Assembly (NCBI GenBank): GCA_958009085.1
Contig: OY253668.1
Location: forward strand, 2,108,001-2,148,294
DNA length: 40,294 bases
From: Protoeuglena noctilucae
Lineage: Eukaryota
Direction of reading: 5' to 3'
Each line of letters starts with the position of its first letter. The stretch's first letter is position 1. The notes under the pieces were generated by a model. That model was not told the origin of the DNA and ran no database searches. It was given only the letters and a program-made list of their open reading frames with translations. The translations under genes were made by a program, and so were the position numbers. Below are positions 10,416 to 38,573 of the stretch, piece by piece.

Positions 10416-11642
10416 ATGTCCGTCCTTCGCGAGGCTGCCCGCACCGCGGCGCCTTCGCTCGCGCGCCACGCGCGGTGCATGACGTCGCTGACCACCTTCA
10501 CGCCCCCCACACTCCCGGACCTCCCTTACGACTACAACGCGCTGGAGCCCGTCATCAGCGCCGAGATCATGACGCTGCACCACAAGAAGCACCACCAGGC
10601 GAGCCCCCGAGGCGCGATGCGGTATTCGCCCCGCGCTTTCTCCCTAGCGCACCTTGTCTACTTGCACGCATCTCCTGGTGCGCACGGGGAAGCGAGAGAT
10701 GCCCCCCCGGCCGACCCCTTGCTGCGGACGTTGGCATAGCGGGACTGGCCCTCCCCTCGACGCGATGCCGTGCGTATCGGGGCCCTCGTGACCAATCCAG
10801 CGAGCTCCGATACACTCTTGCGCCCTGCACGAGCCGCACCGGGCAGCAGCTCCCCGGGAGCGCGCCCGCAGTCGTAATGCAGTGGGCGCACCATGCTTAC
10901 ATGCCACTGCCCCCGCTCGCAGGCCTACATCAACAGCTTCAACGCCGCGATGGACAAGTTCCTGACGGCGGAGGCCAGGGGCGATGTCTCCACGATGATC
11001 TCTCTGGAGGCGGCGCTGCGGGTGAGGTCCCACGCTTCGCCACACGGCCTGGCACGGGCTGTGGCATAGCACCCCTCTCGCTGGCTGCCTTGACAGGGAT
11101 GCACCTAGTGCCTTCCTGTTTCCGTTCCAGTTCAACGGCGGCGGCCACGTCAACCACTCCATCTTCTGGACCAACCTCACGCCCCCCAGCAACTACAAGG
11201 AGCCGTCGGGGGAGGTGGCCCAGATGATCGGTAAGCACTGGGGGTCCGTGGACAAGTTCGTGCAGGACTTCAACGCGCGCGCCGCGGGCGTCCAGGGGTC
11301 CGGGTGGTGCTGGCTGGGGTACGACAAGGCCATGGGGCGGCTGGTGATCGAGACGACGCCCAACCAGGACCCCCTGGTCACCAAGGCGAGAGGAGTGGAC
11401 GGCATTCACAATGCCAGGCTGGCTGCTCTCATCAGCTCCGTGGCGCCTCCACCACCCACCCCTTCCCTCACCGCCCCTCGTGCCTCGGCTCGCAGGGCCT
11501 GATCCCCCTGCTGGGCGTGGATGTGTGGGAGCACGCGTACTACCTGCAGTACCGCAACGTCCGCCCCGACTACCTGAAGGAGATCTGGAAGGTGGTGAAC
11601 TGGGCCAACGTCAACGAGCGCCTGGCTGCGGCCACCAAGTGA
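10416..11642 (+). CDS. SOD2: Mitochondrial Mn superoxide dismutase, 4 exons (10416-10598, 10923-11021, 11131-11385, 11496-11642)
   Basis: Motifs [47 protein letters not shown] and [11 protein letters not shown], plus an Arg/Ala/Ser-rich presequence. Introns 1 and 3 have GC donors. Confidence 0.96.
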
Positions 11643-11782
11643 AGACTAGACGCTGCCTGCGCTCGCATCCCACGAGGCGCAACTAGGAAGCGCGCCGCTC
11701 CCGCCGTTTTTCCGAATGACACCCTCGATCGTTTGAACCTGTCGATGGGCTCGGTTGTGACACCATGGTACCCCCGCCCCAC

Positions 11783-13236
11783 TCATCCCTGCCCCCGCGC
11801 CCTCTTGGCCAATGGCCCAGGGCTCCCTCCGCCCTCTGCCCCCTCGTCTCCCCTCCCGCGCCTCGTGGCCCCACTGCCACGCGCCCCCGGACCGGACACC
11901 ACCACCACCACGTCATCATCATCCTCCGTCTGCCCCCTGCCCGCCACCCCTCCCTCGTCCTTCTGCATCCCCCGCTCTCCTCCTCCCACGTCTAACACCC
12001 CGCTCTGCCCCCCTTCTCCCTTAACTGCCTTGCCCGCTTCCCTTACGCCCTCCTCCTCCTTCACTGCCCCACCCACATCCCTCACGCCCCCCTCCTCCTT
12101 CACTGCCTCACCCGCCTCTCCCCGCAACGTGGCAACCGGCGATGCCTCCCCCGCCGCCCCACCCTTCCTCGCATGCGCCGCGAACATGGCCGCCACCGTC
12201 TTGTTCTTGCTCTTGAGTGGCGACACGCACTGCGGCCCCTCCAGCTCCCCCTGCTTGTTCAGCTGGGTCGTCACCCGGTGCCACGCCAGCCGCGGCGCTG
12301 CCTCGGGCGCCGACAGACGCCCCAGGGCCTTGGGGTCCAGGCGTGACGCCAGCCACGCATCGCAGTCACCCGGCCTGGCCAGCATCACCGGCATGCGGTC
12401 GTGCAGGAACGCGACGTGCTTGCTGGCCTCCGTCGTCAAGACTGCGCGAAGGGCAAAGGTGCCAGGTGCTGCTGCCGTGCCACTGCCGCCCATGCACAGC
12501 GCACGCAACCACCCATGCACCCCCGCGCCTCCCCTCACTCGTGCATGTGCACAGGGGCTCCCCTCCCTCGCCCGTCCAAGTGTCCCACAGCCCCGCGAGC
12601 CACAGCACGGGCGCCTTGCCCCCCTCGACCGACGCGCCCTCGGGGTAGATGTAGTACGGCTGGCGGACCCTCTTGCTCCCCAGCTCTGCCTCGGACCTCC
12701 ACTCGTAGAAGCCATTGCTGAGGACAATGCAGCGGTGCGTGGACAGCAGCCGACCGAAGACGGGCTTGGCGTCTACCGTCTCGGAGCGGGCGTTGAACAT
12801 GCGGTAGAAGTCGGGGCGCTCCCCTGGCTTGGTGAAGCTGCGGCAGAGGGCAGGGGTTGGTGGGGCATGCAGTGCTGGCAGTGCTCGTCGCCATGAGGGG
12901 GCAGGCTACTGTTGTTCTGGTGCTGCTCACACCTGGGCACCAGACCCCATCGCATGGACTGGAGGCATCGCTGGCCGTCCTCAACCCTCACGACGGGCAC
13001 CCAGCCCCCCGGGCCCACGTTGTAACTCTCTGCGCTTCCACAGAGGTGGAACAAGAACGGATGGAGCCACACGAGTTGCATGGATGAGAGGAAAACCAGC
13101 TTGTACACTCAACGGGAAAACTCGTCTCATCAGCTTTACCTCGATATCGTTCCGAGTCTCGCCACCTCGACGGATCGACGCCAGCGGCCTCGCAGGCCTC
13201 GGCGTGGCTCAGCGACACGCGCATACGCCCGCACAT
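11783..13236 (-). CDS. HMCES: SRAP-domain abasic-site processing protein (HMCES/YedK family)
   Basis: N-terminal MCGR (catalytic Cys2), SYNVGPG, MRWGLVP, MFNARSET, GFYEW, AGLWD and LHDRMP across 4 exons, followed by a low-complexity C-terminal tail. Confidence 0.93.
11995..12110 (-). repeat. ~3 copies of a 39-bp (13-aa) coding tandem repeat in the HMCES tail
   Basis: ACTGCC recurs at 12024, 12063 and 12102 (period 39); peptide AVKEEGGVRDVGG / AVKEEEGVREAGK / AVKGEGG. Confidence 0.7.
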
Positions 13237-13559
13237 GCTCCGAGAGGGTTTCTCGCACACTGCCGACGGCCCATCAAGGTACTTGACCCTCACGGGCAGC
13301 ACCTGCTCGATGGAGGCGGGGCAAAGACGCGATTCAGAAGCAATCGTTCAGCGCCAGCCCAAGAGCTTCGATGTCAGCCGCCCCATGCGTCCTCCAAAAG
13401 ACGCTTGCGTCTGCCCTGACCACCTTCACGTTCTGCTCGACTGAGCCTTAGCCTTGCTTGTCCGGCTGCCTGTGGCATCGCCCATCGAGGAGGCAACGGG
13501 CCTGCAACCGGCCCCCGCATCCCCGCCGCTGTCGTGGCCGCCCTGCATCTTGGCTGTTC

Positions 13560-14714
13560 ATGTCTCAAAACACGATCGGCATGGCCAACTACTTGCGCAG
13601 GGTGTTCCCGGGGTTCCTCAGGAAGCTGGAAGTGAGGCGCGCCTTGCCCGGCGGCCATGTCGACTGCGTCGCGTCCTATCGTAACGTTTTCATGAGTATA
13701 TCGTCTCCCTCTTTCTGCCTGTGTGGCTCTTTTGAGATGGCGGCCGCTGTCCGTCGAGCACGCGGCAGCGAACGTGGCGGGCTCCATCGCAAGGCCCCCC
13801 TGCCCGGTTAGAGCATCATGGGCCGTCCCGGGGCGCATCACGCAACTCTATTTTGACTCTCTTCTGACTCTACGCTTTCCAGCGCTGGTTTGCGGGTGGA
13901 TCGCGGCGCGGCGAGCTTGTGCATCATTCCCCACCCCCTCCTCCTCGCCCAGGTCACCAAGCTCGGCGAGGTGACGGCGGAGGTCAAGTCGCCGGAGATG
14001 TTCCCGGCCTTCCTGACGGCCCTGCGCGACGACGCCAACCTGCAGTTCCGGACCTTCATCGACATGACGGGCGTGGACTGGCCGCACCGGGAGCGGCGCT
14101 TCGACGTCGTCGTCCACCTCCTTTCCACCTTTAACTCGCAGCGCATCTGGGTCAAGACCGACGCGGGCGAGTGGGCGCCCGGGGGCACGCACTCGGGAGT
14201 CCCTCCGGCGCCCCGTTCGCGCCCGCGACGCGTGCGCCTCCCTCCCCCGCAGACGAGGTCAGCCCCGTCCCTAGCGTCACTTCCATTTTCCCCGCCGCAT
14301 TGTGGGCAGAGCGCGAGACCTACGACATGTTTGGCGTACGCTTCACGGGCAACCCCGACCTGCGCCGCATCCTGACGGACTACGGCTTCTCCGGGCATCC
14401 CCTTCGCAAGGACTTCCCTCTCTCGGGCTACACCGAGGTGAGGAGCGGCGGAGCAGACGCGGGCGTGGGTCCAGGGTCCCGCACTGTGCCGATCGACGGC
14501 GTGCCCCATCCGTTCCCGGCCCTCCCAGGTCCGCTATGACGACAGTGAGAAGCGCGTGGTCATCGAGCCGCTGGAGCTGACGCAGGCCTACCGCCAGTTC
14601 ATGCTCTCGTCGCCGTGGGAAACGCGCATGGACGACAAGGTCCGCGTGGAGGCGGAGCCGGGGGCAGCGGGGGGAGCGGCCGCGCCGGCGGCGGAGGGGG
14701 CGAAGAAACCTTGA
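13560..14714 (+). CDS. NDUFS3: NADH:ubiquinone oxidoreductase 30 kDa subunit (Nad9/NDUFS3), 4 exons (13560-13631, 13953-14166, 14253-14437, 14529-14714)
   Basis: Motifs [78 protein letters not shown] and SPWE. Intron 2 is GC-AG. Start codon less certain. Confidence 0.93.
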
Positions 14715-15123
14715 TGGAAGGGCCGTGGGTGTGCTTTGCATCAGGGCATCAGTGTGTATGCCACTCGACAGCGAGCCCTGGCGACGCAGCAGGGGCGTAG
14801 TGCGGCGCCATGAGTATGCCGCGACTTCAAGACTGCATAGAGACTGCGCATGAATGATGAAAATGCCATTGTGACTTGCTTGCACCCCTGCGACGCATGT
14901 TTCGTTGCACTGGCACCGAACCCGTCGCATGGAGGTGGCTGCAAGCTCAATCCCCCCTCGCATCTGCCCTTCCGCCACATCATTGCGCTGTTGTCCGCTT
15001 TGTCACGGCGCACGCGAGGCTCTGTCCCACGGTGTCACCACGTGGCACCGGGCTGAAGCTTGTGGCGCCTGGCATGGTCGAGCGGCGTGCGCCGTAGCAC
15101 GGCTGAGGCTTTTAATAGTTGCC

Positions 15124-18100
15124 ATGCTGTCGCCGCTGCTCACAACCTTGCTTCTGGCCTTGGTGGGATGCGGTTTTGCATGGGGCCTCTCTGCCACCAC
15201 TGCAGCTGGCGGGGAGACTGGCCAGGGTCCCTACGATGTTGTTGGAAGAGCACTGTCGTCCTGTGAGTCTCGGATACGTGGCCCCCTTTCTTCTCGTGCC
15301 GCGGCTCGCGCCTTTCAGTGCCATTGCCCTTCGTGCGCGCTGCGACGCTTCGCGGCCCTCCTGCGGTTACGGTGCGCTGCGTTCGAGTGTAATTATGCGA
15401 GTATCGCTTATTATTGCGGATGTCGACTTCCGAAAACGCTGGCGTGCCCCGCAGCGCTTGATGAGATGTCGCCCATCACGCCTACTCTTACCGCCGAGTA
15501 CTCCGCGGCCTTCGCGTGGGGCGAGGAATGGCGCGTGATGCTAGACTTCCACCAAGTCGTGACAGGCAAGGGTCGAAAACAAGATGTGCTGTGCCTTTCA
15601 GGGATGCGCCTCGCGGCAGAGTCGCCATTCCCCGCTGTACCATGTCCGCAGCCACTGCCGAGAATCTGCCGAGCTTCCTGCACGCCCCCTCCGCCGGCGC
15701 CACCCCTGCCGACACCTCGACACCGACCTCCCACTACGTGGTGCCCGACGAGGTGCCCAGCGCGGTCCCCTCCCGCCGCTTGGCCGATGCCCAGGACCCT
15801 CAGACGACGAACGTGGCCTACGTCCGCGTGGTGTCGTACGACCCTTCGACGGGCGTGGCGCGGCTGGCCGTGGGCATCGCCTCGCCCGGCGACGTCGTGC
15901 TGCACCTCAGCAACCTGACGCAGGTCAAGATGGGGCAGATGCCGATCCCGCTGATGGACTCGCAGTGGAGGCGCGTGCCGACCGCCACCATCTGGGGCAA
16001 CGCGGCGGGCGCGACGGGGATGATGAGCCAGCTGCAGCCGGCCGTGTCGGGGATGGCCATGACCAGCGCGGGCATGGCGGCGGGGGGACTGGCGGCCGGC
16101 GCGGTCGGGGCGGCGTCGGCGGGGTCCGTGATGGGAACCCTGTCGATGCTGTACGTGGTGCAGGTGAGGGCGACTTGTTCCGTCGCACCGCTGCATGCAC
16201 CACTGCGTCAACTCTCTCTATCAACAATCGCCTCCCCTGCCCGCAGCGACTCGGCGCGCTGGCCAACCTCACCCCACCCACGCTCGACTGGCGCGTCCGT
16301 GACGCCACCATGGCCCTGTCCGGCGTCTTCGACATGGGAAAGTGGCACACGCCCTTTGACGACCAGGTCTTCCGCCAGGCCATCGAGCGCGGCCTGGATC
16401 CGGGACTGACCGCCCAGGCCATGCCTGGCAACAGCGACCCCCAGATGCGCGCCACGCACGGCGCCATGACGGACGGCGACTGGGGCGATCTCATCGACTC
16501 CTCCATGCTCGTCCAGACCGTCCGCCGTGTCTTCTGGTCAGCCATCGTCCTCGCCGCCGTCGCCCTCGCCCGCCCCGCCCTCCGCGCCTCCTGGGTCGCT
16601 CTCATGAGGCGCCGCGCCTCGGCTCCACCCGGCAAGACCCACCGCGCCCGGGCCGCCGCGCACGTGCCGGCGTTCCTGGAGGTGAGTGAGCATGCAGAGG
16701 AGAGTGAGAGCAAGAGAGTCGCTGTCTCGTGCGCCCCCTCAACCACACCGGCACTCGCACCGTGCGCAGTTTCCCACTCCTGAGGTGTTCACGGCCCTGG
16801 CGCTGCTCCCCTGCGTGGCGGGCGCGGCCGGGTACCTGACGCAGGGCGCGAGGGGGGAAGTGGCGGCGGCGGCGGTGCTGGAGCTGGCCCTCCTCGTCCT
16901 CCTCCTCCTCGCCGGCGTGTGGACCGTCCGGGGGCAGCTCCTCCTCTTCCCCGCCGAGCGCCACCTGGCCTTCGTGGTCGAACAACGCGACCTCTGCAGG
17001 CGAGAGGGACACCGTCGCTACTGGGACCCAGATGTGCTTTGATGAACCATCGCTTGATCCAACCATGCGACTTGCGCCGTGCTCCCCAGGTGGCTCCGGC
17101 GGCAGGAGGAGCGCTCGGCCTCGCGCCTCTCGTGGCTCACGGCCTGGCTCGGCGTGGGCCGCGTGCGCCCACCCGGCGAGTGGCGCCCGCAGACGGACCG
17201 GGGACGCGCGGCCCTGGAGCACATGGGGGCGCTCTTCGACGGCATCGCGGGGCCACTGGCCGTGCGCCTGGGCGCCTCCTACGACGTCATCGGCTTCTGC
17301 CCCGTACCGGACGATTCCACTCATGCGGACCCCAAGCCCAGCACGGACGCCCTCTCCGACCGCACCGCACCCACCGCCCCCGTCCTCGGCCACGCACGCC
17401 CTCCCTCGGACCCCGAGGCACCCCCGCCCCGCACGCGCCGCCAGGTCTTCATCCCCCGCCTCAACCGCGGCGTCCTCGTCCCTGTCGCGGCCGTCGTGGG
17501 CACCAAGCTCCCCGCCCTGTCTCGGGCCAGGCGAGTTATCAGGGTGGATGGGCAGGGGACGGGGCATGGCATCTGTGTTACTCGCCGCGCTAGGTCGCAA
17601 AGCATCGCGTGTATGCACATGTCATACCAGGCAGTCAAACAGTCCATCCGCTGCCCTTCCCGCTCTCCCAGATGGCTCGTGTCTCAGTACCTGTCCGTGG
17701 CCGTCCCCACGACTCGCACGCTCCTCCTCGCGGCCATCATGTCGCTCACGGCCGCGCTCCCCATGGGCGCCGGCACGCGCACCAAGCTTGCCGTGACGGG
17801 CGCCGCCGCCTCCCTCCAGGCCCTGTCCTTCCTGACCGTCGTCGTCCTTGCGCCCTTCGCGTCACCCGCGCAGCAGGCCGTGGAAGCCCTCACCTCCCTC
17901 GGGGAGACCCTGTCCTACACGGTGAGGTCGCGCCCCAGGCGTCCTCATTGCACCCCGCCCCGCCGACGAGGCGGCTCGCGCCAGGCGGTGACGCCCACCG
18001 CCGTGACTCCCACCCATGGCGTCCCCGCAGGTCATGTTCGGTGGCTACCTGACGACGTGGCACGCCGAGCGCATGGGCGGCACGGCCCACGCCATGCAGG

Positions 18101-18831
18101 CCATGAGCACCGGCCAGACCCTGGGATTCGTGTTCTCCGCCGCCCTCCTCTTCGCGCTGCTCGCCAACGGCGTCGGCCAGATCTACTCCCTCGTGTCCAG
18201 CTACCGCACCGCCCGCGAGCTCATTGCCCGCGCCCTCGAGCGCACCAAGTGAGAGGCGCCGCTGCACAGGTGGAGTGGCAGGCCCTGGAGAGCACCATGC
18301 GTGGGGCTGAATGCACCTTGCTCTGCCGCACGCAGGCTGGCGGACCGTCTCTGGGCAGCAGCCAAAGGCGAGAGCCGCCGGAAGGCGCGGTGCCAGGGCG
18401 ACACGACCCTGCTGGCCAAGAAGTACGCGAACCGGTGGCTGGGGCGTGCGCTGCGGAGGGAGCTCCCGGGGTGGCCGGGCATGTACGAGCTGGACGGAGA
18501 GCAGGAGTCGGCCCTGCGCCTCTGGCACCTGACGCGAGCGGTGCAGGAGGCGGGGCTGGGGGCCGAGGGGACGCTGCTGCAGCGCCTGCGGATGGGGCGC
18601 AACGCGGACGACGGTGCTGCGGAGGGCACGGCGGTCGGGAAGGGGAGCTTCCTGCAGAGGGTCGTGCAGCGGGGGACCTCGCGACGGGTGGCAGACTCGG
18701 GGAGCGAGGGCGTCCCAGATGCCTCCCGCCCACGGCGTGGGCCGAGCAAGGGTAATGGCATCCCCTCACGCGTGCGGTCCCAGGTACTGCTGATGGCCAA
18801 CAGCACGCGCGTGATGCGTGGAGATGAGTAG
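15124..18831 (+). CDS. Multi-pass membrane protein with signal peptide and extracellular domain (possibly TRP/PKD2-like transmembrane module)
   Basis: Signal-peptide-like MLSPLLTTLLLALVGCGFAWG, about 9 exons joined in frame, and several hydrophobic segments (VFWSAIVLAAVALA, VLELALLVLLLLAGVW, LSFLTVVVLAPF, LGFVFSAALLFALLA). TAG at 18829-18831. The family assignment is weak. Confidence 0.65.
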
Positions 18832-19820
18832 GTATTTTAGCGAGCTCCATCCATTCAGTATCCAGGCTTTGAGCAGGCTTCGAGCAGTGCAGTGAGCAGG
18901 AATAGCAGTACAGAACTAGTCATCGGGCTTCTGGCCTGCCAGTGACAGACGCCAGTGCGCCTTGTCCGTTGCGGAATGCTTGAATCCGGTTACAGATTGA
19001 GGTCTCTAGCATCTTGCAAAGCGTCGGCGCCTTAGGCAGGGGCATATCTGCTTTTCGGAGTCGCGGCGCGGCGGTTTTGGGGATCGGCGGGACGCTATGA
19101 TGGGCGCTTCGTGCCTTGCGCACGCAAAATCGAGCGTAAGCTATCGGCTGGGATCGGCGGATTCGGCGCAGCCCAGGCGGGCGGGTGCGCGGCAAGGTGG
19201 GTCATGCCGCAGAGGGCCCGGCGCAGCGAGGAGCGAAATGGTGGCCCAAGCCTTCGTACGGCTGCTATCGGCGCGGCGCATCGCGACCCTCCGCTCGCCG
19301 CCATCGCTCTCGGCGGGTCCGCCAGGGGATGCTGAGGTGGAGTCCCTTCGGCAAAACGTGTCTTTCAGAATCGCTCCAGCGCCCAGGCCGCGTCCATGCT
19401 CTATATGTAATGCCGTTTTATCCGCCCGTTGCTCTCCTTGCGCCAACGGCTGGTCCAGCGCGCCCGTGGCAGCGAGGGTGTTGCCACAGCCATCAAGCTT
19501 TCCACGGCCCGTGCGCCTGTTTCCTTGGCTTTTCTCGCGCACCGTTGTTTTCCATCCATGCGTTGTCGGACCCTGACCTCGCCACCATCGACTTGCAGAG
19601 GTCAGGGAGGCCGCCGGCGCCGCGGGCACTTGCGCTCAGCATTGCGCGGCTTAAATCCATGCCACGGGCGCCCCGCACGCGTCCGCGGGGCGTGTTTATG
19701 GCTGCAGCCGCTCCTGTTATTCGCTAATTCGGCATTGCACTCGCCGTTGCGCCCTCCGGCGACGCAGCGCGGCGCGACGGCCCGCGTGACGCGCTGCCGC
19801 AACCCCCTCCGCGCCTGCAG

Positions 19821-22635
19821 TGTCCGCCGCGGCCGTGGCATCTCCGTCCAAGCGCGCGACGGCCCAAGATGTGGCGGACGTGGGTCTGAAGGACGTGCCC
19901 CTGCGGTCCCTGTTCCCGGATGAGCCCCCGCGCCCGGCCCCGGGATCCCCCAAGCTCCGGGTGGCCATCGTGGGCGGCGGCCTCGCAGGGCTGTCCACGG
20001 CCGTCGAGCTGCTCGACCAGGTGATCACTGACTCGCAGCTGCAGCGGCTGGACAGCACTAAATGGCCGTGCAGCACCAACCGCACTCGGCTCGCCCCCCC
20101 TCTGCCGCCCAGGGTCACGAGGTGGAGGTCTTTGAGCAGCGCCCCTTCCTGGGCGGCAAGGTGGCGTCGTACGTGGACAGGGACGGCAACCACGTGGAGA
20201 TGGGCCTGCACGTCTTCTTTGGCTGCTACTTCAACCTCTTCCGGCTGATGGCCAAGGCGAGCCGCGACGGGACGCGTCGAGCGATGCAGGGACTCGCCCG
20301 CGCGATGTCACCAGTAGCCTGCTCGTGGGGACACCGGCACTCCGGCTAGATGTTCGCCCCGCGACTTCTGCCCCGCGCAGTGTGGGGTGCTGGAGAACCT
20401 GCTTCTCAAGGAGCACGTCCACACCTTCTGCAACAACAACGGCGACGTGCGGCCCCTCGACTTCCGCCTCTTCGTGGGCGGCACCAAGATCGGGGCGCCT
20501 CTGCACGGCATCAACGCCTTCCTCACCACGCCCCAGGTGTGAGATGGGGCAGAGACCTGGACTGGACTGGATGCATGCGTGCCTCCCCAGCTGACCGCAT
20601 CCCCTGCCCTGCCCCCTGTCGCAGCTCGAGCCCGTGGACAAGCTGGCCAACTCGGTGGCCCTGGCCACGTCCCCCATCGTGCGGGCGCTGGTGGACCCCG
20701 AGGGCGGCATGCGCGACATCCGTGCCCTCGACAACATCTCCTTCACCGAGTGGTTCCTCAAGCAGGGGGGCACGCGGCAGTCCATCAAGTAAGCATGTAA
20801 CTATTCGTTCACCTGTGCCCACGACACGGCGCGTGCCACCCACGCCTCTGTCAAGAGCTCTCCAAACATCCACCCACCGTGACACTTCCCCCCAGGCGCA
20901 TGTGGGACCCGATCGCCTACGCCCTGGGCTTCCTCAACTGCGACCAGATCTCCGCCCGGTGCATGCTCACCATCTTCCAGTTCTTCGCCACCAAGACGGA
21001 CGCCTCCGTCCTGCGCATGCTGAACGGCGCGCCGGCCGAGAGGCTCGTCAAGCCCATCCTCGAGTACATCCAGGCGAGTCAGCGAGCAGTGCACAGTGCA
21101 CCCACGCTCAGCCATGTGAAGCCCTGCCTGACTGCCTCGTCTGCCATCTCGTGCAACTGCATGCTTCCACCGCTGCCCTGCAGTCCAAGGGTGGCAAGGT
21201 GCACACGCAGTGGGGCTGCAGGGAGGTGCTCTACCAGGACGGCCCCGAGGGGACGCCCGTGGTGACGGGGTTGCGGATGGGCAAGGGGTCGCAGGAGAAG
21301 GCGAGCGGGGAGCGGGGGTGCAAGGGCAACCAAGCCGCTCCTCGTCGCCCGCTGTCCTCCCTCATCCCCCGCGCCTCACTATTCTCAGATGGTCACTGCC
21401 GACGCCTACGTGGCGGCCCTGGACGTGCCCGGCGCCAAGAAGCTCATCCCCCAGCCCTGGCGCCGCTTCCGGCAGTTCGACGACATCCACAAGCTCAAGG
21501 GGGTGCCCGTCATCACCGTCCAGCTGCGTTATGACGGATGGGTCACAGAGCTTCAGGCGAGAACAGCCACAGTCGTGCTGAAGCCATGCGCATGACCCCA
21601 CCACCCCACTCCGGCACCGCCCCTGCACCACCCTTGCCAAGCCGCCCTCCCCGCCCTCCCCGCAGGATTCTGCGGCCATGCGCAAGGTGGGCAAACGCTC
21701 CGAGGCCCCCGCCCGTGGCCTGGACAACCTGCTCTACTCCGCCGACGTCGACTTCTCCTGCTTTGCCGACCTCGCCCTGGTGAGGCGGCGCAGCGCATGC
21801 CGCTACGATCGCAAAGGGCCACCGCGCCATCCACGAATCCATTCTTGAGTCCATCCAGGGTAATATGCTGTAGCACCCTTTGCAGTAACCTCTCTGTGTT
21901 CCATCAGACGCCTAAATACTGGACACTTCCCATCCCGGTCCCTTGGCAATCTCGCTCTCGATCCTCTGCCCCCCTCAGACGTCCCCCGAGGAGTACTACC
22001 GCGACGGCCAGGGCTCCCTGCTCCAGTGCGTCATCACCCCCGCGGACGCCTACTTCCCCATGACAAACGAGGCCATTGCCGCCAAGATCCACGAGCAGGC
22101 CATGCGCCTGTTCCCCTCCGCGCGGGGGCTCAAGCTCACCTGGCACTCGGTCGTCAAGATCGCACAGTCGCTGTACGAGGAGGCGAGGGACGCGGGAGGG
22201 GCGCAAGAGGGGCACAGCGGCACGAGTGCGTGTCGTCGTGGCCCTTGCCTCTCACCCGCCTGCGTCTGCCATTCCCCCAGGCACCGGGCATGGACCCCTA
22301 CCGCCCCGACCAGCGCACGGTGGTTCCGAACTTCTACCTGGCCGGGTCGTACACCAAGCAGGACTACATCGACTCCATGGAGGGGGCCACGCTGTCGGGT
22401 GAGAGTTTGGAGTCGGCAGTTCCACACTGCTCTCACTGCCAGCAGTCATATCCAGGCCAGGCATAGCGCAATCCTCAACTCTTGCTGGTCTCTTTGCATC
22501 GCATCCCAGTGAGGCGCCCTGCCACCCACCCACCCCCTCCCTTCTCCCCTCCCAGGCCGCCAGTGCGCCTACTCCATCATCGAGGACGTCGCGCGGATCC
22601 AGGCCGCTGCCACCACTGCCACCGCCAAGGCCTGA
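19821..22635 (+). CDS. ZDS: Zeta-carotene desaturase (plastid); first transit-peptide exon upstream of 19821 not resolved
   Basis: Motifs [82 protein letters not shown] and [23 protein letters not shown]. Eleven exons placed; 5 of the 10 introns between them have GC donors. Confidence 0.96.
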
Positions 22636-22850
22636 GCCGTGACTCTGATGCTGCCGCCAGCGCACCGCGCATTCAAGGGCTGGCGCGGCAACGCAACGCC
22701 GTGGCAGTTGAGGGTTGAAGTGCAGCGAGCTAGCCGATCCCGCAAGGCTGCTTTCGATCCGCGACGCGTCTAGAGACAGGCACGCTCCCGCTTTCACGCG
22801 GCCCGCCCCTCCCTCGCGGCTGTAGGCAGCCAGCTCCCGTCGCCGCCCCA

Positions 22851-27469: not shown

Positions 27470-29766
27470 ATGACGCTCGCGAAATTGTTGGCGGAGCAGC
27501 GCGGGATGCGCTTGGTGCCCATCCACGCTGGCGCCTGCCTGCGAGCCCTGCCGCATCATCCGTTCGGCGCGCGCTTTGCCAGCCGCGTCGCCCCGCGCGC
27601 GGGGCCTGACAGCGGCGTGCTGGAAAAGTACGAGGCTGTCATTGGAATCGAGACGCACGTCCAGCTCCAGACAGCGACGAAGGCATTCTGCTCCTGTCCC
27701 AACGAGGTGTGTTCCGACAGGAGACCTTCTCGACCCGCCGCGCGCCTCGCCGCTCTGCCAGGGCCACGCCTCGTTCTTCCCGCAGTACGGTGCGGAGGTC
27801 AACCGGCACGTCTGCCCCGTCTGCATGGGCCTCCCGGGCGCGCTCCCGGTGCTCAACCGTGCCGCCACCACCCTCGCCGTGCGTCTGGGCCTGGCGCTGG
27901 GCAGCTCCATCGCTTCGTCCTCCAAGTTCGACCGCAAGCACTACTTCTACCCCGACCTGCCCAAGGGGTACCAGATCAGCCAGTACGACGAGCCCGTGTG
28001 CTCGGGGGGGCGCGTGGAGGTGCTGCTGCCGGGGGGAGGGCGCAAACGGGTCGGCATCACGCGGGCGCACCTGGAGGAGGACGCGGGCAAGATAGTCCAC
28101 GGGGGAGCGGACTCTCTGAGCGGGTCCAAGCATTCCAACGCCGACTACAACCGAGCGGGGGTGCCGCTGCTGGAGGCGAGGGGCGGGGTGGGGCGCGTGG
28201 ATGGGAGCGTAGAGTGAGATGCAGCGTTGCGTCTGATGCGTTGGGACCCTTGACTGGCGCAGATCGTGTCGGAGCCGGACTTGCGTTCCGGCCAGGAGGC
28301 GGCAGAATACGGGGCGGAGCTGCGCCGCATCGTGAGGGCGCTGGGGATCAGCAACGGCAACATGCAGGAGGGGTCCATGCGATGCGACGTCAACGTCTCG
28401 GGTGAGCCCTGGACAGGATGCATGACAGCGGGGTGCGCGTGGCCCGCGTGACGTGGGGGCCGAGGCCACCTCGTCCGGCTCTCGCCCGCAGTGCGCCCGC
28501 GGGGTCAGTCGGCCTTCGGGACCAAGGTGGAGATCAAGAACATGAACTCGTTCAGCGCCATGCAGAAGGCCATTGAGTTTGAGGTGGCACGGCAGGTGGG
28601 GCTGATTGAGGGGGGGCGCGGGGAGGAGATTGTGCAGGAGACGCGACTGTGGGACGAGGGGAGGCTCGAAACGTACACGATGAGGAAGAAGGAGGGGCTG
28701 GCGGACTACAGGTGACGGCGCACGCAGGGGATGCATGGGGGTTGACCGTCGATGGCAGTCGCGGCGTGGCAGTGGATGACGCCCTGCCCTCCCATCCCTT
28801 GTGTGGTGCCCTGTCACATTCTCACGGCCACCAGCACGCCGCGTCGCCCCAGGTACTTCCCCGAGCCAGACCTGCCGCCCCTGACCATCACCGCGGAGGA
28901 GATCAAAGCGGTCCAGGCCTCCATGGGGGAGCTGCCCGACGCACAGCGCGAGCGGTACGTGGCCATGGGTGAGTGCCGCACGGCCAGAGGCGGGGCAGCC
29001 AGGCATGCAGTCGGGGCTCAGAGGCGGCAACAATGCGCCCCCCTGGTCCTGTCCCCACTCGCCCTGCGCGCCATCTGGACCCCAGGGCTCGCTCCCGGCG
29101 ACGTGGCCTTCCTGGTGGACGACATGGACGCCGCCGCCTACCTGGACGCGTCGGTCGCGGCGGGGGCGGCCCCCAAGGCCGCCGCCAACTGGGTGATGGG
29201 GGACCTCGCCGCCCACTGCAAAGCCAGCAAGGTCGCTTTCGCTGACCTCGCGCTGACGCCGCCGCAGCTGGCGGAGCTGGTGACTCTGATCGAGCAGGAC
29301 GTCATTTCGGGGAAGATCGCGAAGCAGGTGGGCGCCGAGGGGGGTCAAGTGCCACGGGACGATGCCCGGTGGGTGCCCAGAACCTCACTCCTTGCATACC
29401 CGCAGATCCTGCCCTCCCTGCTGACGGGCGCTGCGGGAAGCGCGGGGGGTGTGCGGAAGCTGGTGGAGGCGTCGGGGCTGGTGCAGCAGAGCGACCCGGA
29501 GGCGATCCGCGCGCTGGTGCGCAAAGTCCTCCTCGACAGCCCCAAGGAGGTGGAGCAGTACAGGGGGGGAAAGACCAAGCTTATGGTGAGTCAGTGTAGA
29601 GCACAGCATGCAGCGTGCTGCAGCCGCACGCGTCACGTTAGGGCATGCGGCTCGCCGGTCGCAGGGCTTCTTCCAAGGCCAGTGCATGAAGGCGTCGGGC
29701 GGCAAGGTGAACCCGAAGATGCTCGCCGAGATCCTCAAGCCCATGCTGGATGGAACGGAGGAGTAG
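27470..29766 (+). CDS. gatB: Glutamyl-tRNA(Gln) amidotransferase subunit B, organelle-targeted, 8 exons
   Basis: Motifs [90 protein letters not shown] and [14 protein letters not shown], with an N-terminal transit-peptide-like extension. Confidence 0.96.
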
Positions 29767-29914: not shown

Positions 29915-29953
29915 TTTTGCTTCCGGCTCTGCGGTCGCGCCTCGGGGGAGGGG

Positions 29954-31142
29954 ATGGAGCAAGGGGGGGAGGAAGCCACGCGGCTTTTTCGCGTGCGGAG
30001 GACGATCTGGCAGGCGCGCACTGGAGCGGGGGGCGTGGGCTGTGCAGACGCTTTGACGAAGTTTACGGGGTCTCGCGTCGCGCGCCGGCACCGTGCTGCA
30101 GCCCCCTTTCAGCGGACGCGCTGTCCTTGCATGAAGACAGCAGCGCAGTTGTCCGCCGCCGCTGGCAGTGGCCTCACTTGCCGCAGTCGGGGCTCGCCAT
30201 GCGCCCCGCGGCACGACACGCCCGCACCGTCGCGCGCGTGCAGATGCTCCGTGACCGTGGGTACTTGGTGGGCCAGAAGGACCTCAACACGACGTTGGAG
30301 GAGTTTCGGGCGACGTTCGGGGACCATCCGGACCGCGCGCTGTTGTCGATCCAGACGAGCCTCCTGTCGAACGAGGAGGAGCAGGCGAGGGCGCCCGCGG
30401 CCCCAGCGAGGACCAATTCGTGCCATGAATGTCTGCGGGGCGCGTGGTAGCGTGGGGCACTTCGATGACGTCCCCCTGCATCCTGCATCATGCGCAGGTG
30501 CTGGTCTACTTCCCTTCCGAGGCCAAAGTGACGTTTCCGACGCTTCAAAGGGTTGTCCAGCTCATGAGGCAGCACAGCATCAGCCTCGCCATTCTGGTGA
30601 GCAGTGCGGAGGCCTGCGCGCGACCACCATGGGATGGTGTTGCTTGCCGATTCGGCAGACCTTCGTGCGCGTCGCCCACAGCGAGATGGCTCGAAAGCGT
30701 CTCGCGCCCTCAGGTGGCCGCTGAGCCCCTCTCGGGCCACACGGCACGTGCGGTGCAGGAGGGCCTGGTGGAGGGGTTTCGTTTCGAGTTCTTCTTGGAG
30801 AAGGAGCTGTTGGTGAACATCACCGAGCACGACCTGGTGCCCAAGCACACTCCCATGACGGAGGAGGAAAAGGAGGCGCTGTTGGAGCGGTACAAGGTGG
30901 GGTGACGCCCGCGCTGGGTGTTGGGTGCAGATAGGCCGTGCTGTTCCCACCCGTGCCTGCCCTGCGGACGCGAGGAGCAGCAAGGGAACGGCGCGCCGCA
31001 GGTCAAGGAGTCCCAGCTGCCGCGCATTCGCAAGGACGACCCGGTCGCCCGCTACCTGGGGCTGCGGCGTGGCCAGGTGGTGCGCATCGTGCGCAAGTCG
31101 GAGACGGCGGGGAGGTATGTGACGTACCGCATATGCCTGTGA
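29954..31142 (+). CDS. RPB5: DNA-directed RNA polymerases I/II/III shared subunit RPB5, 5 exons
   Basis: [34 protein letters not shown] and [41 protein letters not shown]. Introns 1 and 2 have GC donors. Confidence 0.96.
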
Positions 31143-31548: not shown

Positions 31549-34217
31549 ATGTCGGACGAGACGGATGCGCCGCGGTTCTCGCTGGGCAAGAGGTGAGGCC
31601 TCCCCGCGCCGTGGGTGCTCCACGGGCCGCGCTAGCTGGACCTCGATCCTAAATTGCTCGTTCCGAAACGCCGGCGAGGACTGCGCCCGGCGCGCCATGC
31701 CTGGAACGCGGCTCGGGCCCGCCCCAAACGCGGCGCACGCTCCTGGCCCGTGAGCTATCGGGGCCGGCGTGATGCGGGCGCAGCGTATCGAATGATGATC
31801 GTGGCGGCCATTTGCGTCCCGGCGCGTGATCGCTGGCCCCTCGCGACACTTTTGGGGACTCGGGGCTCGTTGGGGCCCACTTGTTCGCTATCCGCCGGGA
31901 ATTCGGCACTTGTCGTTCCGACTTTCAAATCCTGGCTGCATGGCGCCTGTTTGACCCCCACGCGGCTGTTCTCCGGGCCTGGTCAACCCACACTGTCCTA
32001 CCGAAGTGTGAGGGGGCATCGACGCGTTCCGAGCACGTTTCGGCGCCATAGACCGCCGCTGCGTGCTGTTGGGAGGGAATTATATTGTCGGGGGGATGGC
32101 GGGCCGGGCATCGCTTGCGAATTGGCAGGAATATCCACCATCTGTCGCACGAGCATGGGGGCACCCTCCTCGCACCCACCCAGGGACCTTAATTCCGCCG
32201 CATGCTGCTCCTGTGTGTTCACCGTCTGCGCCCGTCCATCCTGCCTGCAGGATATGGCAGGGCGAGTCGTGCCAGGTCTTCTTGGGGGCGGACGCGGCGA
32301 CGGGCGCCCCCGTGGCCGTCAAACACTACCCCCGCGACCGCCTCGACCCGACCACGGAAGAGTACGTGCTGCAAGAAATCTCCCTCCACGCGTCGCTCGG
32401 TGAGGCCCCGGGGGGACCGCGGCGGGAAAGAGGGGCTGCCCTCGCGTGCCGCGTGGGCCCTCTGACCAGACCCCTCCTGCCCCGCCCAGACCACCCTCAC
32501 ATTCTCCCCGTCCTGGCCGCCATGCGCAACGACTCGGGCATCTCCGTGGTGCTCCCCTTCGCCTCCAACGGCGACCTCTACGAGCGCTTCGCGGACCTCG
32601 ACCACTCGGAGCGCACCATCGCGCGCCATGTCCTGGCGCCCCTCCTCAGCGCCCTCGCCTACGTCCACGCCCGCGGCATCGTGCACCGCGACATCAAGCT
32701 CGAGAACGTCCTCCTCGACGGCCGCGGGCGTGTCCTCCTCGCCGACTTTGGGTTCGCCCTCGACCTGCAACGCCGCCGGGCACTCACGCACGTCGGCACC
32801 CGCGTCGCCATGGCGCCCGAGGTGCTCCTGGGAGACCCGGCCGCGGGGCCCGACGCGCCCCTCCGCTGCGAGGTGCCCCGGGACGCGCGGCCCTCCTACG
32901 GAACGGCCGCCGACATCTGGGCCCTCGGGGTCCTCGCCTTCGAGCTTCTCACCGGCCGGGTACCCTTCGCCGGCAGCGACGACCGCGGCATCGCGCGCGC
33001 CATCTTCGCCAGCCACGCCGGCCTCCGCGCCGGCGTCTCCCCCCTGGCGCTCGACTTTCTCCGCCGGTGCCTCACCTTCGACGCCAGGGAACGCCCCACC
33101 GGTGAGCAGCGATGCCCTGCGACCACGTGGCTGCTGCCCGCCTGCCCGCCCGTCTCATGCGCAAGCCCCCCCTCCCGCGCCCAGCTCGCGATCTCCTGTC
33201 CCACCCCCTCCTCGTGGCGCACTGCGACCCCACGCGCCTGGCAGCCCTCGTGGATGCCGTCGCCGACAGCCGCCCCCTCGTCGACAACCGTCTCTTGACG
33301 ACTCGCCTCGAGTCCCGCTCCCAAGCCGCCGAGGGCCCGTCCGAATCGGGCAAGACCTTCAGCCCCGCTGCGAGGCGAGACATGCCAGTTGTTCGGCCTC
33401 GCGAGCTCGACCCTGCCCTGAGCCCGGCCCCATCATCATGTTACCCATCCCTGCCCCTCCCCTCCCCCGCAGCATCATGGGCGGGACCGGGTTCCCCTCC
33501 CCCACGCGCCCCCGGCACCTGGCCGTGCAGGCCCCCAGCCTCGCCGGCGACCCCACCGGCGCTGCCCGGCCCGGGGTTCGGGTCCCTCGCCTCGACCTCC
33601 CCCCGGTCGTCCCCGTCGGCAACAAGCCCACGCGCCACAGCTTCGATGGCCCTGCCCCAGCCACCCGCGGAAGATGTCCGCCGACTGCGCACGCGCCGCT
33701 GCGGGGGCGTGCGTGCCGCCCCCCGACCCCTCGGACGGCCAGGCAAGCCTCGCCTGCCCCTGCGCGCGTGCCGGCGGTCGATCTGCGACGATGCGTGACG
33801 GTAGAGCGCGCTGAGCGTGACGTGCCCTGCCCCGTCCCCGGAACTCTGCAGGGCCTCGGCACCGTGGTCAGCCTCGCCTACGCGGGCGCAGAGACCAACG
33901 ACAGGCGGGGCAGTCGCTGGGGCGGGATGCCGGGGGGCATGTCGGCCGCTTGCGGCGTCAAGGGCAGCGCCGACAACCTCGCCACGTGCCGCCCAGAGGG
34001 TGAGGCCGGTGCATGGTGCCACCACCACATGGATGGCCTGCCCTGGCCTCAGCCGCTGACTGACTCCCCTGGACCGTCAATCCCTGCAACAGTCGCAGGC
34101 CTACCGGCGCTCTCGTTGACTCGGCCCACGGAGTCGGGCCGCGCCTCCCGCACAAACAAGCACGACCCCCCTGGCCGGGTACGGGGGAGGGCCGCGCGCC
34201 TCCTCCACTGGTGGTGA
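31549..34217 (+). CDS. Aurora-like Ser/Thr protein kinase with a Pro/Arg-rich C-terminal tail
   Basis: Exon 1 31549-31592 (MSDETDAPRFSLGKR), intron 31593-32250, then VAVK, QEISLHASLDHPHI, HRDIKLENVLL, LADFG, MAPE and DIWALGVLAFELLTGRVPF. The 3' end is uncertain (34217 or a further small exon near 34320). Confidence 0.88.
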
Positions 34218-35296: not shown

Positions 35297-36206
35297 TCAC
35301 TCGCGGATCCTCGTCTCCGCCTTGGTCACCTCCCTCTGGACCGTCTGCGGGGGCGCACGGACCACGTTGTCTCTGCCCCCTCTCTCGGCGACCCCTGGCC
35401 CGACAGTCGCGCTGTTTGGCAGCTGAATTGACAGGGTCTGAGAGGCAGCGTCTCGTACGTGAATTCCAGCTCACCTTCTCCCCCTCGGCCTTCTTCTCCG
35501 CCTTCCCCTTCGGCTTGAAGTTGGGGTCGAATGGCAGGTCCTTGGACCTGCAGAGGCGATGACCGGAGGGTCGGGGTCTCCAGCCCAGCCCAGTGACGAC
35601 GCTGAGCAGGACGACCGCTGCCCCGATCACGTCGCCGCATGTGGGCCCCCCTGGCCCTGCTCACCGGAAGATGACGATGTGAACTTGGCCTACGAGGAGG
35701 TGGATGTAGGAGCGCGTGTCGTGCGTGATGCAGCAGGCGAAGTGGTACCCCGCAATGCAGTGGTACACGCCCTCGAGCGCCGTCTGCGTCGGAAAGCGGT
35801 CGTCGAAAGCCTTCTTCACGTGCTCTGCGGGGAGGGCAGAGTGAATGTGGGTCAGTGCGCTTCGGGGAGGAGCGCGGCGAGTCTCTGCCCCTGCGCAACC
35901 ACCAAGATGGGGTCCCAGGCCCACCTGCAATGGCTTTCAGCTGCTTGTGCTTCGTCACGGCCTCCTCCGCAATCTGGATTGCCGCCTCCTGGACCTCCTG
36001 CGCCATGTACGACTGCAGGACCTGCGCAGAGATGGCACCGCGGACGGTTCGGGCCAGCACATGCGACGCTGAGGGAGCCGGGCAAGCTCCAGGCTGCGGC
36101 TGCGGGTCCCGTCGCCAACTGCCCGCTTCCAGCGCTGTCTTGCCTTTGCCTCCACCTCCTTCGGCACCGCCTCCTGCGTTCCCGGCTCGGGATCCGCGGA
36201 CATCAT
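35297..36206 (-). CDS. Dynein light chain type 1 (LC8-family) protein with N- and C-terminal extensions
   Basis: EVEAK|VLQSYMAQEVQEAAIQIAEEAVTKHKQLKAIAEHVKKAFDDRF...VYHCIAGYHFACCITHDTRSYIHLLVGQVHIVIFRS follows the LC8 pattern. The last exon is tentative. Confidence 0.8.
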
Positions 36207-36891
36207 CGTGCCCGCTCTCCTCCTGCAGAAAGCGGCCGCACGTGCTGTCTCTACGCCGCGCGCGGTCAGCGGGGCTCACAGGGCGAGTACTGATACAAAA
36301 AGCCAGCGCTTCTCAGCGCAGCACACCTTGTCGGTGTCCGCACCCTCCGAGGCCCTCGATGCCGAGGCTAGATCCAATCCGGGGGCGTTAGAGATGCCTG
36401 CCGAACGGGCGCGCCCAGGTTGTTCTGCAATGAGGGGAAAAGGCAAGGAAAGGAGCACTTTGCCCGAGCAGGGCTGGCCAAGACACACTAGTGCCTTGCA
36501 TGTCGTGACCTTCGCATGCATCCGGGGGCGTCCTCGTCGAGAAAGGAACCCGGAGAGCGTCAAACATAGCAGATACATTCACGGACAGCAGGAAAGGCAT
36601 CATTGTCGTCACCTCAATGCGAGGAAGCTCCAGCGCAAGCAAAGAAAGGGCGAATTCCTCCTGCGCAACACAGCGTGTCAGCGAGTAGTCACAGAATGAT
36701 CCTCAGACCATTGACAGGCTGTGAATGCGAGGGGCCTCAAGCAGATGCGTGTTCCCTGGAGGCTTGCACGCGAACTGGCAGCTGCAAAACAGGCTGGCGG
36801 GGCTTCCTGCGGCAGTGGCGAGGCTTGGACTCTGCAAATCTCAAACTTCAAAACCTAAAAGCGTCACACTCCTTGGCTCAAGCCCCCGTTG

Positions 36892-38573
36892 ATGACGGGA
36901 GCGTCCCCATCCGCCCTCCTCGCCGCCTTCCCGGGCGGAGTGTACACGGCGAGGATCGCGAATGCAGCCCAAACTCGGCCTGTCGAGGCCATAACTCCTT
37001 CACGACCACGAAGTTCGCGAAATGTTGCTTACTCCCGCAGGCGGGCGTCGTGGAGCGCCCCATTCCCGGCGTCACCCTGCAGTTGCGGCACGAAGCCCTC
37101 CACGTGGCGCGATTGGCGCAGGGCGTCGCTCTCCACGCCGCTGCGTTTCAACAGCTGCTGGCGGCCGCGGTCCTGGATTGCGATGGCGGCGATGCCTCGC
37201 TCACGGGGCTCCTGTGCCCGGGGGAGGAGGCGGTTATGGACGGGGCCGTGACGCGGGCGCTGGAAGAAGCAAGGGTGGGAGAAGGCTCTGAGTGGACGGC
37301 ACGGGCGCTGGCTGCGACGGGGGCGGCTCTGCGGGCGGAGGTGCTTGCGGCGCTGTCGGAGGCGGTGCAAGCGTCTGAGGGCTCTGCCGCGTGGGAGACG
37401 GGGGCAGAGGCCATGGCGGTGGTGGTGGTGGGGCCGGAGGGGACCTCGAGGCCGTGCTCGTGTCCCTGCCGCGTCAGGGAGGGGGCGGTCGTGTGTGCGC
37501 TCGTCTGCCCGCTCCCCGCACCCTCTGCTGGGCTGGGGCAGCCGCCCTGGGCCGCGGTCCGCGAGGGCCGGCGCAGGGACGGGCCGCCGCTCTCCAAGGT
37601 GGGCTGCGACGCGCGCCTGGCCCCGGGCTGCTCCCTGCCTCGGTCCTGGTTGGGGGGGTTGCCCCCGCGACCACCGACCCAGCTCCTTGCTCTGTTGCCA
37701 CCGCGCAGTACTGCGCATGGGTGACCGAGCGCGCCGCGATCACCACGGGCTTGGGACCGGGGTGCGTGGATGTGGTGATGGCGGCGCGGGACGGGGAGGA
37801 TGGGGCGCGGGTGCTGGTTGAGGGAGCGGTCACATCGCTGTTTGTGGTGGCGGACGCACGAGCCGCGAGGGTGCAGGCGAGAGGGATGGGGCAGGGATGC
37901 GGCAGCGGCGTGGACGGCGTCGGGCGAGCTGAATTATTGCAGCCTGTGTCCGCGCTGTGTGCAGGCAGAGTCCGTGGCAGAGAGGGGTGCAGAGCCGGAC
38001 AGGGTGCGAAGAGCGCGGGCATGGGCGAGGGCGCTGGAGGCGGCGCTGCCAGTCTCACCGACAGACTGGTCGGATGCGGTAAGTGGGGTCGCTGCGGCTG
38101 CGACACAGCCAGCGGTGCTCTTTGGCACAGCCGTGTGCCAGCACAGGACACCGATGCAATCGTCCAACAATGTGTCCTCCTCCACAGGGTGACCCTCCCG
38201 TAGTGCTGTGCACGGCCCCTCTTTCATTGGGAGCACTGCCCGGCATTGCGCGTGTTCGGGCGCTTCACGCTGCGGCAGACGTGGCCCTGCCAGTCCTGCT
38301 GGCCGCCCCGCCTGCCGAGCTGTGGGGTTGCCGGGAGGTGTTCCTGTGCAACGCCGTCCGGTGGGTGCGCCGGCTCCTCTACCTGGTCATGTCAGGCATG
38401 GCACGTCCCCTTCACTGACGCCCCTTGTTCCCAGCCCACCCGCGTGCAGGGGCATGCTTCCGTTGGCCGCGTTGCGGGACGGTGGCGAGGGCGGGGCTCT
38501 GCTCTGGGCCGCCCGCGCAGAGGATGGCTGCCCCGGCCCCGTCACCCGGGCCCTGGCCGCAAGGCTGGTGTGA
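36892..38573 (+). CDS. Class IV PLP-dependent aminotransferase-like protein (D-amino-acid aminotransferase / ADC-lyase fold), 6 exons
   Basis: GGVYT, HVARL, SK|YCAWVTER, EGAVTSLFVV, ALPGIAR, EVFLCNAVRG and PGPVT match the fold-type IV motif order. GC donors at 36949 and 37877. Confidence 0.78.

Follow-up and report, generated by a model that had tools for sequence, protein, structure and literature searches.

Do about a third of the introns in one green-algal locus begin with GC, and what would allow it? The question is raised by a stretch of 40,294 nucleotides (the window) from contig OY253668.1, positions 2,108,001 to 2,148,294, of GenBank assembly GCA_958009085.1, deposited as Protoeuglena noctilucae; positions below count from its first letter. 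A preliminary description had called GC-AG introns a major splice class here and had suggested a change in how the spliceosome reads the second donor base (+2). The observation of abundant GC-AG introns is confirmed. The 39 introns that we validated comprise 14 GC-AG and 25 GT-AG introns, a GC-AG share of 36% (14/39; exact 95% confidence interval 21-53%), and removal from mature, polyadenylated RNA at GC..AG borders is shown. We consider it probable that these are ordinary U2-type introns of a GC-rich marine chlorophyte, in which GC donors (about a third to a half) result from GC pressure together with compensation elsewhere in the donor and require no special U1 small nuclear RNA (snRNA).

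The direct evidence comes from assembled contigs of three metatranscriptome runs (X8, X9 and X11) and one DNA-like run (X2), which were compared with window positions 10500-30499; X8 and X9 are two samples of one study. From the 53 joints found in this interval 15 are listed, and each was slid within its stated ambiguity. Every listed joint gives exactly one canonical reading, GT-AG in eight and GC-AG in seven. The seven GC-AG joints, all in X8 and X9 contigs, are the following, with a slash marking the exon-intron border in donor motifs and the junction in profile coordinates:

10599..10922, + strand: SOD intron 1, GC-AG, CAG/GCGAGC; RNA joint in X8 and X9, only GC..AG possible
14167..14252, + strand: NDUFS3 (Complex1_30kDa) intron, GC-AG, CGG/GCGAGT; RNA joint in X8 and X9, PF00329 on both neighboring exons
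20257..20380, + strand: ZDS intron, GC-AG, AAG/GCGAGC; RNA joint in X8 and X9, TIGR02732 continuous 69/70
21074..21183, + strand: ZDS intron, GC-AG, CAG/GCGAGT; RNA joint, TIGR02732 continuous 230/231
21301..21388, + strand: ZDS intron, GC-AG, AAG/GCGAGC; RNA joint, TIGR02732 continuous 269/270
21557..21665, + strand: ZDS intron, GC-AG, CAG/GCGAGA; RNA joint, TIGR02732 to 325, then from 331 after a 10-residue insert
22183..22280, + strand: ZDS intron, GC-AG, GAG/GCGAGG; RNA joint in X8, X9 and X11, TIGR02732 continuous 426/427

In the zeta-carotene desaturase gene (ZDS), single contigs of X8 and X9 join across all 11 introns (five GC, six GT), and hence GC and GT introns are removed together. 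An X11 contig from which introns 22183 (GC) and 22399 (GT) have been removed terminates in a 22-A tail at 22732; because it ends in this tail with its introns removed, the spliced ZDS form is a polyadenylated plus-strand mRNA.

Protein profiles supplied a second line of evidence. Single exons were scanned, the test being whether profile coordinates run on across each junction. Nine ZDS exons tile TIGR02732 positions 22-465, with the insert after the 21557 intron as the sole break. Beyond the listed joints, five GC-AG introns are backed by contig pieces or loose ends and two (the last lines below) by profile continuity:

15566..15651, + strand: first intron of the membrane-protein gene, likely GC-AG, CAG/GCAAGG; X8 record 15 diverges from the genome at the acceptor, with 27 further letters upstream
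17000..17089, + strand: membrane-protein gene, GC-AG, CAG/GCGAGA; X8 record 15 lengths exact, GC..AG the only canonical reading in the slide
17531..17671, + strand: membrane-protein gene, GC-AG, CAG/GCGAGT; X8 record 15 piece end at 17526 plus a 4-base slide
28176..28262, + strand: gatB intron, GC-AG, GAG/GCGAGG; X8 record 16 diverges from the genome at 28173, with 2 bases of slide
30385..30497, + strand: RPB5 intron 2, GC-AG, CAG/GCGAGG; X8 and X9 loose ends at 30385 read into the exon starting at 30498
11386..11495, + strand: SOD intron 3, GC-AG, AAG/GCGAGA; Sod_Fe_C continuous 60/61, no joint among the 15 listed
30014..30243, + strand: RPB5 intron 1, GC-AG, CAG/GCGCGC; RNA_pol_Rpb5_N continuous 16/17, no joint among the 15 listed

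In the membrane-protein gene, 229 and 472 record letters are missing between the pieces of X8 record 15, exactly the exon lengths expected from the five introns between 16682 and 18335; for the piece that ends at 17526 the intron lengths add to the required 337 bases, and the record lengths also fit the GT intron 16164-16246 to the base. Donors 17000 and 17531, named earlier as further likely cases, are borne out by these lengths; donor 15566 is likely, given the acceptor, the reading frame and an ATG at 15466. Across gatB donor 28176, GatB_N is continuous at 148/149 and LLE/IVSEPD aligns without a gap to 13 homologs; all gatB junctions are gapless in this alignment, and the other ones are profile-continuous too. 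The Sod_Fe_N profile covers positions 3-32, then a 33-residue exon intervenes, then 66-81 (SOD exons 1-3), and the in-frame GT alternatives to SOD donor 11386 (within 45 nt) have poor site scores. RPB5 exons match Rpb5_N at 2-16 and 17-65 on either side of 30014-30243, and Rpb5_C at 1-28 and 29-73 on either side of a GT intron.

Could the GC borders be an artifact, either because true GT donors lie beside misplaced junctions or because sequencing or assembly put a false C at +2? Our ab initio gene finder, which combines codon log-odds with splice matrices that weight GT and GC alike, did make two false GC calls in HMCES, two of the 13 donors claimed in the preliminary description have an in-frame GT 6-9 nt away, and the agreeing DNA contig (X2 record 7, which spans the stretch with no differing letters) is possibly the window's own source. 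The listed GC joints nevertheless admit only GC..AG and recur in two runs; T at a GC-donor +2 occurs in no contig over 10500-30499, although contigs drop rare variants. At 11 of the 13 donors claimed, profile coordinates continue without a gap and the artifact is already refuted; as a general explanation it is hardly credible.

The 13 donors had been described as forced by conserved protein motifs. Eleven are backed by RNA or profiles; 36949 and 37877 are not forced, as in-frame GT alternatives lie 9 and 6 bases upstream. The earlier count is reproduced in the six conserved genes in which it could be checked (11 GC of 31), and for HMCES the claim of no GC donor in three introns agrees with the SRAP profile, which runs 32-64, 74-150 and 152-213 over exons 2-4 with three GT donors. 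The two GC donors called there by the finder are false by the same continuity. The seven genes of the tally are:

10416..11642, + strand: SOD gene (Mn/Fe superoxide dismutase), 3 introns, 2 GC; GT-AG intron 11022-11130
12041..13236, - strand: HMCES/SRAP gene, 3 introns, 0 GC; GT-AG introns 13030-13139, 12838-12932, 12442-12538; coding 3' end provisional
13560..14714, + strand: NDUFS3 gene, 3 introns, 1 GC; GT-AG introns 13632-13952, 14438-14528; RNA joints, Pfam
15466..18831, + strand: membrane-protein gene, 7 introns, 3 GC; GT-AG introns 16164-16246, 16682-16769, 17922-18030, 18249-18335
19097..22732, + strand: ZDS gene (zeta-carotene desaturase) to the poly(A) site, coding 19097-22635, 11 introns, 5 GC
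19197-19820, 20021-20112, 20537-20624, 20789-20895, 21780-21978, 22399-22555, + strand: ZDS GT-AG introns; RNA joints, TIGR02732
27506..29766, + strand: gatB gene, 7 introns, 1 GC; alignment to 13 homologs, Pfam continuity
27707-27785, 28402-28491, 28712-28852, 28969-29085, 29328-29405, 29586-29664, + strand: gatB GT-AG introns
29954..31142, + strand: RPB5 gene, 4 introns, 2 GC; GT-AG introns 30597-30713, 30897-31001

Per gene, the GC-AG share is thus 2/3 in SOD, 1/3 in NDUFS3, 3/7 in the membrane-protein gene, 5/11 in ZDS, 1/7 in gatB, 2/4 in RPB5 and 0/3 in HMCES; the 39th validated intron is the single GT-AG intron of a dynein light chain gene. By kind of evidence, GC-AG introns make up 7 of the 15 listed RNA joints, 5 of the 9 introns backed by contig pieces or loose ends, and 2 of the 15 backed by profile continuity only. 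The share of 14/39 exceeds both 1% (p=1e-18) and the 9.7% of regular Micromonas pusilla introns (p=9e-6), in keeping with the earlier description of a major splice class.

What distinguishes GC donors from their GT counterparts is the context. A G/GNGAG context (G at -1, GAG at +3 to +5) is present in 12 of 14 GC donors versus 11 of 25 GT donors (Fisher p=0.017), and G/GCGAG in 12 of the 14 agrees with the consensus AG/GCGAG, mirroring GTGAG, that had been proposed for them. By position, the 14 GC donors have G at -1 in 14, A at -2 in 13, G at +3 in 13, A at +4 in 13 and G at +5 in 14, which fits AG/GYRAG; the U1-complementary consensus rests on the U1 5' sequence of the species in PMC3033335 rather than on this organism's. 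The heptamer AGGCGAG is almost diagnostic of a GC donor: of its 12 copies in the 13.7 kb of sense strand of the seven genes, 11 are donors and one lies elsewhere in exons, with none in intron interiors. Window-wide it occurs 37 times versus 11.3 +/- 2.8 in shuffles, but we prefer the per-gene count because codon usage also makes the heptamer on the opposite strand. The protein-kinase gene, for example, carries six antisense copies (32654-33873, - strand), where the sense CTCGCCT encodes Leu-Ala.

Composition bears on the same position. Among pyrimidines at donor +2 the C fraction, C/(C+T), is 0.36; over 3,872 bases from intron interiors it is 0.65 (binomial p=0.0002). Position +2 therefore still favors T beyond what base composition at equilibrium would give. 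The corresponding value is 0.71 in the pyrimidine tract and 1.00 at acceptor -3: the acceptor is CAG in 39 of 39 introns (e.g., 10922, 14252, 20380) and never TAG. The ZDS coding sequence has a GC content at third codon positions (GC3) of 0.94 and its introns are 66% GC; the whole window ranges from 0.655 to 0.740 in 2-kb bins, above the mark of about 64% seen in GC-donor-rich algae.

These two properties bear, indirectly, on the cause. U1 snRNA normally forms a base pair with donor +2, and C at this position leaves a mismatch (PMC7242645). A spliceosome altered in its reading of +2, through a G at position 7 of U1, a base modification, U1C, U6 or Prp8, would recognize GC as well as GT. The share of 14/39, far above the 1.5-2.7% of Micromonas commoda RCC299 at 64% GC (PMC3033335, PMC4815162), would suit such a change, and Iwata and Gotoh themselves propose RNA modifications or U1 small nuclear ribonucleoprotein proteins as the cause of abundant GC-AG introns (PMC3033335). 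However, the stricter context of GC donors and the rarity of C at +2 relative to neutral sequence are each the opposite of what a C-pairing U1 predicts, and Aureococcus and M. pusilla, both with many GC-AG introns, have the canonical AUACUUACCUG as their putative U1 5' end (PMC3033335). We therefore regard an altered spliceosome as unlikely, and the mechanism is probably not the change in U1, U6 or Prp8 recognition suggested earlier. An Rfam scan of the window gave no matches and hence no snRNA within these 40 kb.

GC pressure with compensation fits better than a C-pairing U1, because the latter predicts that GC donors need less support from their context. Under this explanation, AT-to-GC pressure, whether mutation bias or biased gene conversion, would feed T-to-C changes at donor +2; its signs may be seen in the GC3 of 94%, the invariant C at acceptor -3 and the C-rich pyrimidine tract. 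The C-A mismatch with U1 would then be tolerated by a standard spliceosome only where the other donor bases pair near-perfectly (AG/GCGAG), and GC donors would persist as a large, mildly disfavored class. That C at +2 is tolerated but costly follows from the stricter context of GC donors and the under-representation of C at +2.

Several points weigh against this explanation. With p=0.017 at n=39 the compensation test is of modest strength, and single positions are not individually significant. One GC donor, 30014 (GCGCGC), lacks the compensating GAG, the sole such GC donor at +3 to +5. A standard U1 in this organism is an assumption. M. commoda RCC299 has 64% GC and yet 1.5-2.7% GC donors (PMC3033335, PMC4815162); since high GC alone is insufficient there, an additional lineage-specific factor is likely. 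The evidence tiers also differ, with 12 GC among 24 introns with RNA support versus 2 among 15 backed by profile only, which may be gene-to-gene scatter. Finally, all 39 introns come from a single 40-kb locus.

GC donors could also have been spread by mobile introns, as introner elements did in M. pusilla CCMP1545. Introners are the known route to a high GC share in the only other such green alga, where 79% of GC donors lie in D-IE1-containing introns (PMC4815162). Here, when 19 introns (9 GC) were searched by blastn against the whole window, none matched outside itself, and on this ground we conclude that the introns are unique sequences within the window and not copies of a mobile intron. 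Their lengths vary from 78 to 624 nt (median 105 nt, 39 introns), and no shared interior motif occurs among the validated introns, which makes an introner origin very improbable. U12-type donors ([AG]TATCC) are absent from all 39. As side observations, the last 15 nt before the acceptor are 52% C and 21% T, and the classic branch motif CTRAY is found in 4 of 39 introns.

A different kind of explanation holds that GC donors are selected as deliberately weak sites for regulated or alternative splicing or intron retention. GC-AG introns of mammals have been associated with weaker sites and with alternative splicing (PMC7242645), and donors 17531 and 30014, the latter in RPB5 intron 1, are crossed by unspliced X11 contigs. 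Those unspliced contigs also cover intergenic sequence, however, and may represent DNA in the library. Moreover, the GC donors are in housekeeping genes (SOD, NDUFS3, ZDS, RPB5) and in the same transcripts as equally removed GT introns, although contigs cannot measure splicing efficiency. Selection for weak sites thus seems to us a doubtful explanation. The low-depth X11 contigs collinear with the genome (17453-17793, 23695-24276, 29664-30049 and 13123-13459) cross, besides the two donors, one predicted SEC63 intron and intergenic DNA, and could be genomic DNA or pre-mRNA.

To which lineage does the locus belong? A database search with a 130-residue gatB exon returned chlorophyte green algae as top matches, at identities of at most 73% with none near-identical, and no mamiellophyte was among the 120 best matches. 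In a quick gatB tree the window falls inside Chlorophyta (Shimodaira-Hasegawa-like approximate likelihood ratio test support 98), adjoining Pedinophyceae sp. YPF-701 (95); this placement is based on one gene, with long branches for both the window and YPF-701. Matches and tree indicate a chlorophyte host, in line with the green alga first proposed, and we take nothing narrower as settled from them; the matches also indicate that it is not a mamiellophyte. The YPF701 genome (27.9 Mb, 70% GC; preprint 10.1101/2021.10.04.463119) resembles the window in composition, and in the accessible text of that preprint the word "splice" does not occur. Runs that contain the window sequence include marine metagenomes and metatranscriptomes. 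For orthologous gatB introns, a metagenome scan with the gatB exon gave 80 loci at identities of at most 62%, taken as bacterial by identity level.

Abundant GC-AG introns are already known from other GC-rich marine algae. Their share rises with genomic GC, reaching 39.6% in Aureococcus, 22.2% in M. pusilla and 7.7% in Chlorella sp. (PMC3033335), and Iwata and Gotoh (2011) called their origin an enigma (PMC3033335). By RNA-seq, van Baren et al. (2016) found 25.6% GC donors in M. pusilla CCMP1545, the figure being 43.5% for introns that contain introners and 9.7% for the regular class (PMC4815162). Like the host, that species is a GC-rich (65.9%) marine green alga with a large GC-donor class missed by GT-only gene finders. 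Unlike M. pusilla, the present locus has unique introns, a local share of 36%, a non-mamiellophyte host and much intron-richer genes (11 introns in ZDS). Emiliania huxleyi, with 50% GC donors as cited in PMC4815162, is likewise a GC-rich marine alga with GC donors near parity in ordinary introns, but it is a haptophyte. In Aureococcus anophagefferens and Pelagomonas calceolata (about 63-70% GC, 14-40% GC-AG) the authors credit GC content (PMC3033335; 10.1101/2024.10.30.620910), the pelagophyte preprint ascribing its 14-17% GC-AG to it (10.1101/2024.10.30.620910); both are stramenopiles with 0.1-0.9 introns per gene, whereas the genes here have 3-11 each. The U2-type GC-AG introns of animals and plants show the same borders, the same U1 +2 mismatch and processing together with GT-AG introns (PMC3033335, PMC7242645), but amount to about 0.8-1.5% of introns (PMC3033335, PMC7242645), compared with about a third here. 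The precedents offered earlier rightly included Emiliania and left out those nearest to this case, M. pusilla CCMP1545, Aureococcus and Pelagomonas. For other chlorophytes, we found no report of a comparable GC share in the literature searched, supplements aside.

What is new is therefore the lineage and a share, in ordinary unique introns, above the green-algal precedent. Gene finders restricted to GT would mis-model about a third of the host's introns, and annotation of this genome or of similar metagenome bins needs RNA-guided, GC-aware splice models. Whereas the green precedent in M. pusilla is entangled with introner elements, the introns here are ordinary, unique introns of housekeeping genes, in which compensation (G/GCGAG) and residual selection for T are visible, and they offer a cleaner test of GC pressure against an altered spliceosome. 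A bolder proposal, which we hold improbable, joins a possible pedinophyte alliance (from the one gene tree) and the highest GC share of the green lineage, in ordinary introns, to a lineage-specific change in +2 reading as the cause. If true, such a change would make this alga a natural system for the unexplained origin of abundant GC-AG introns.

Further GC-AG introns were predicted in the gene-dense window, and those in the SEC63, coiled-coil, kinase, dynein light chain and aminotransferase genes were left uncounted because the finder calls GC too often. Its models reproduced the introns of SOD and NDUFS3 and, in ZDS, 10 of 11; its errors included the fusion of the membrane-protein and ZDS genes, antisense shadow genes and retention of an in-frame gatB intron. 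The candidates are:

33375..33472, + strand: candidate GC-AG intron in the protein-kinase gene, GAG/GCGAGA; ab initio, beyond the Pkinase domain
36022..36143, - strand: candidate GC-AG first intron of the dynein light chain gene, AAG/GCAAGA; in-frame GT alternative 12 nt upstream
36949..37040, + strand: candidate GC-AG intron in an aminotransferase class IV-like gene, ACG/GCGAGG; ab initio
37877..38187, + strand: candidate GC-AG intron in the same aminotransferase-like gene, CAG/GCGAGA; ab initio
23106..24875, - strand: SEC63-like (DnaJ) gene span with five predicted GC-AG introns, all AG/GCGAG; ab initio
24784-24875, 23879-23969, 23563-23680, 23315-23397, 23106-23194, - strand: the predicted SEC63-like GC-AG introns

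The dynein light chain gene needs an intron at this place because its exon 2 has no in-frame ATG upstream. Donors 36949 and 37877 are the best-scoring ones at their sites, and the in-frame GT alternatives 9 and 6 bases upstream have poor site scores. The sole profile match of the aminotransferase-like gene is its last exon (Aminotran_4 positions 162-218); the exons flanking 36949..37040 have no Pfam match, and a homolog search with the aminotransferase exon gave no matches. Inside candidate intron 37877-38187 lies an open stretch of 114 nt (37964-38078, + strand) flanked by a CAG acceptor and, at 38079, a strong GTAAGT donor, and the intron may instead end at 37963, before a cassette exon at 37964-38078.

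For the SEC63-like gene, 5 of the 12 introns predicted by the finder are GC, all five with the sense-strand heptamer AGGCGAG; the gene has no profile match and no RNA joint among the 15 listed. The ZDS poly(A) site at 22732 follows the ZDS stop codon (22635) by 97 nt, and about 185 nt separate it from the stop predicted for this convergent gene; at the other end of ZDS, the N-terminus looks, by our own reading of the sequence, like a simple transit peptide. A 200-N assembly gap (4277-4476) falls within the region of a large minus-strand coiled-coil gene, where gene models across the gap are unreliable.

Three of the counted genes merit a further remark. At SOD intron 2, X11 contigs match up to borders 11022 and 11129, beyond which their letters agree neither with the intron of the window nor with the exon that follows; the source may be a related strain whose intron at this site differs, or the contigs may be chimeric. 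The gatB intron 28969-29085 is 117 nt long, in frame and stop-free, so that reading through it would add 39 residues; simple calling from open reading frames or ab initio keeps it as coding, and the 13-homolog alignment exposed it. The membrane-protein gene encodes a predicted multi-pass product of 893 residues with no Pfam family over its eight exons, and an X8 contig of 2,770 nt shows that the gene is expressed.

Of the three database sequences that match SEC63-like exon 25478-25696 (- strand), two are fragments at 100% identity in other assemblies and probably belong to the same organism. The third, a 146-aa protein at 66% identity, points to a moderately distant relative in public assemblies.

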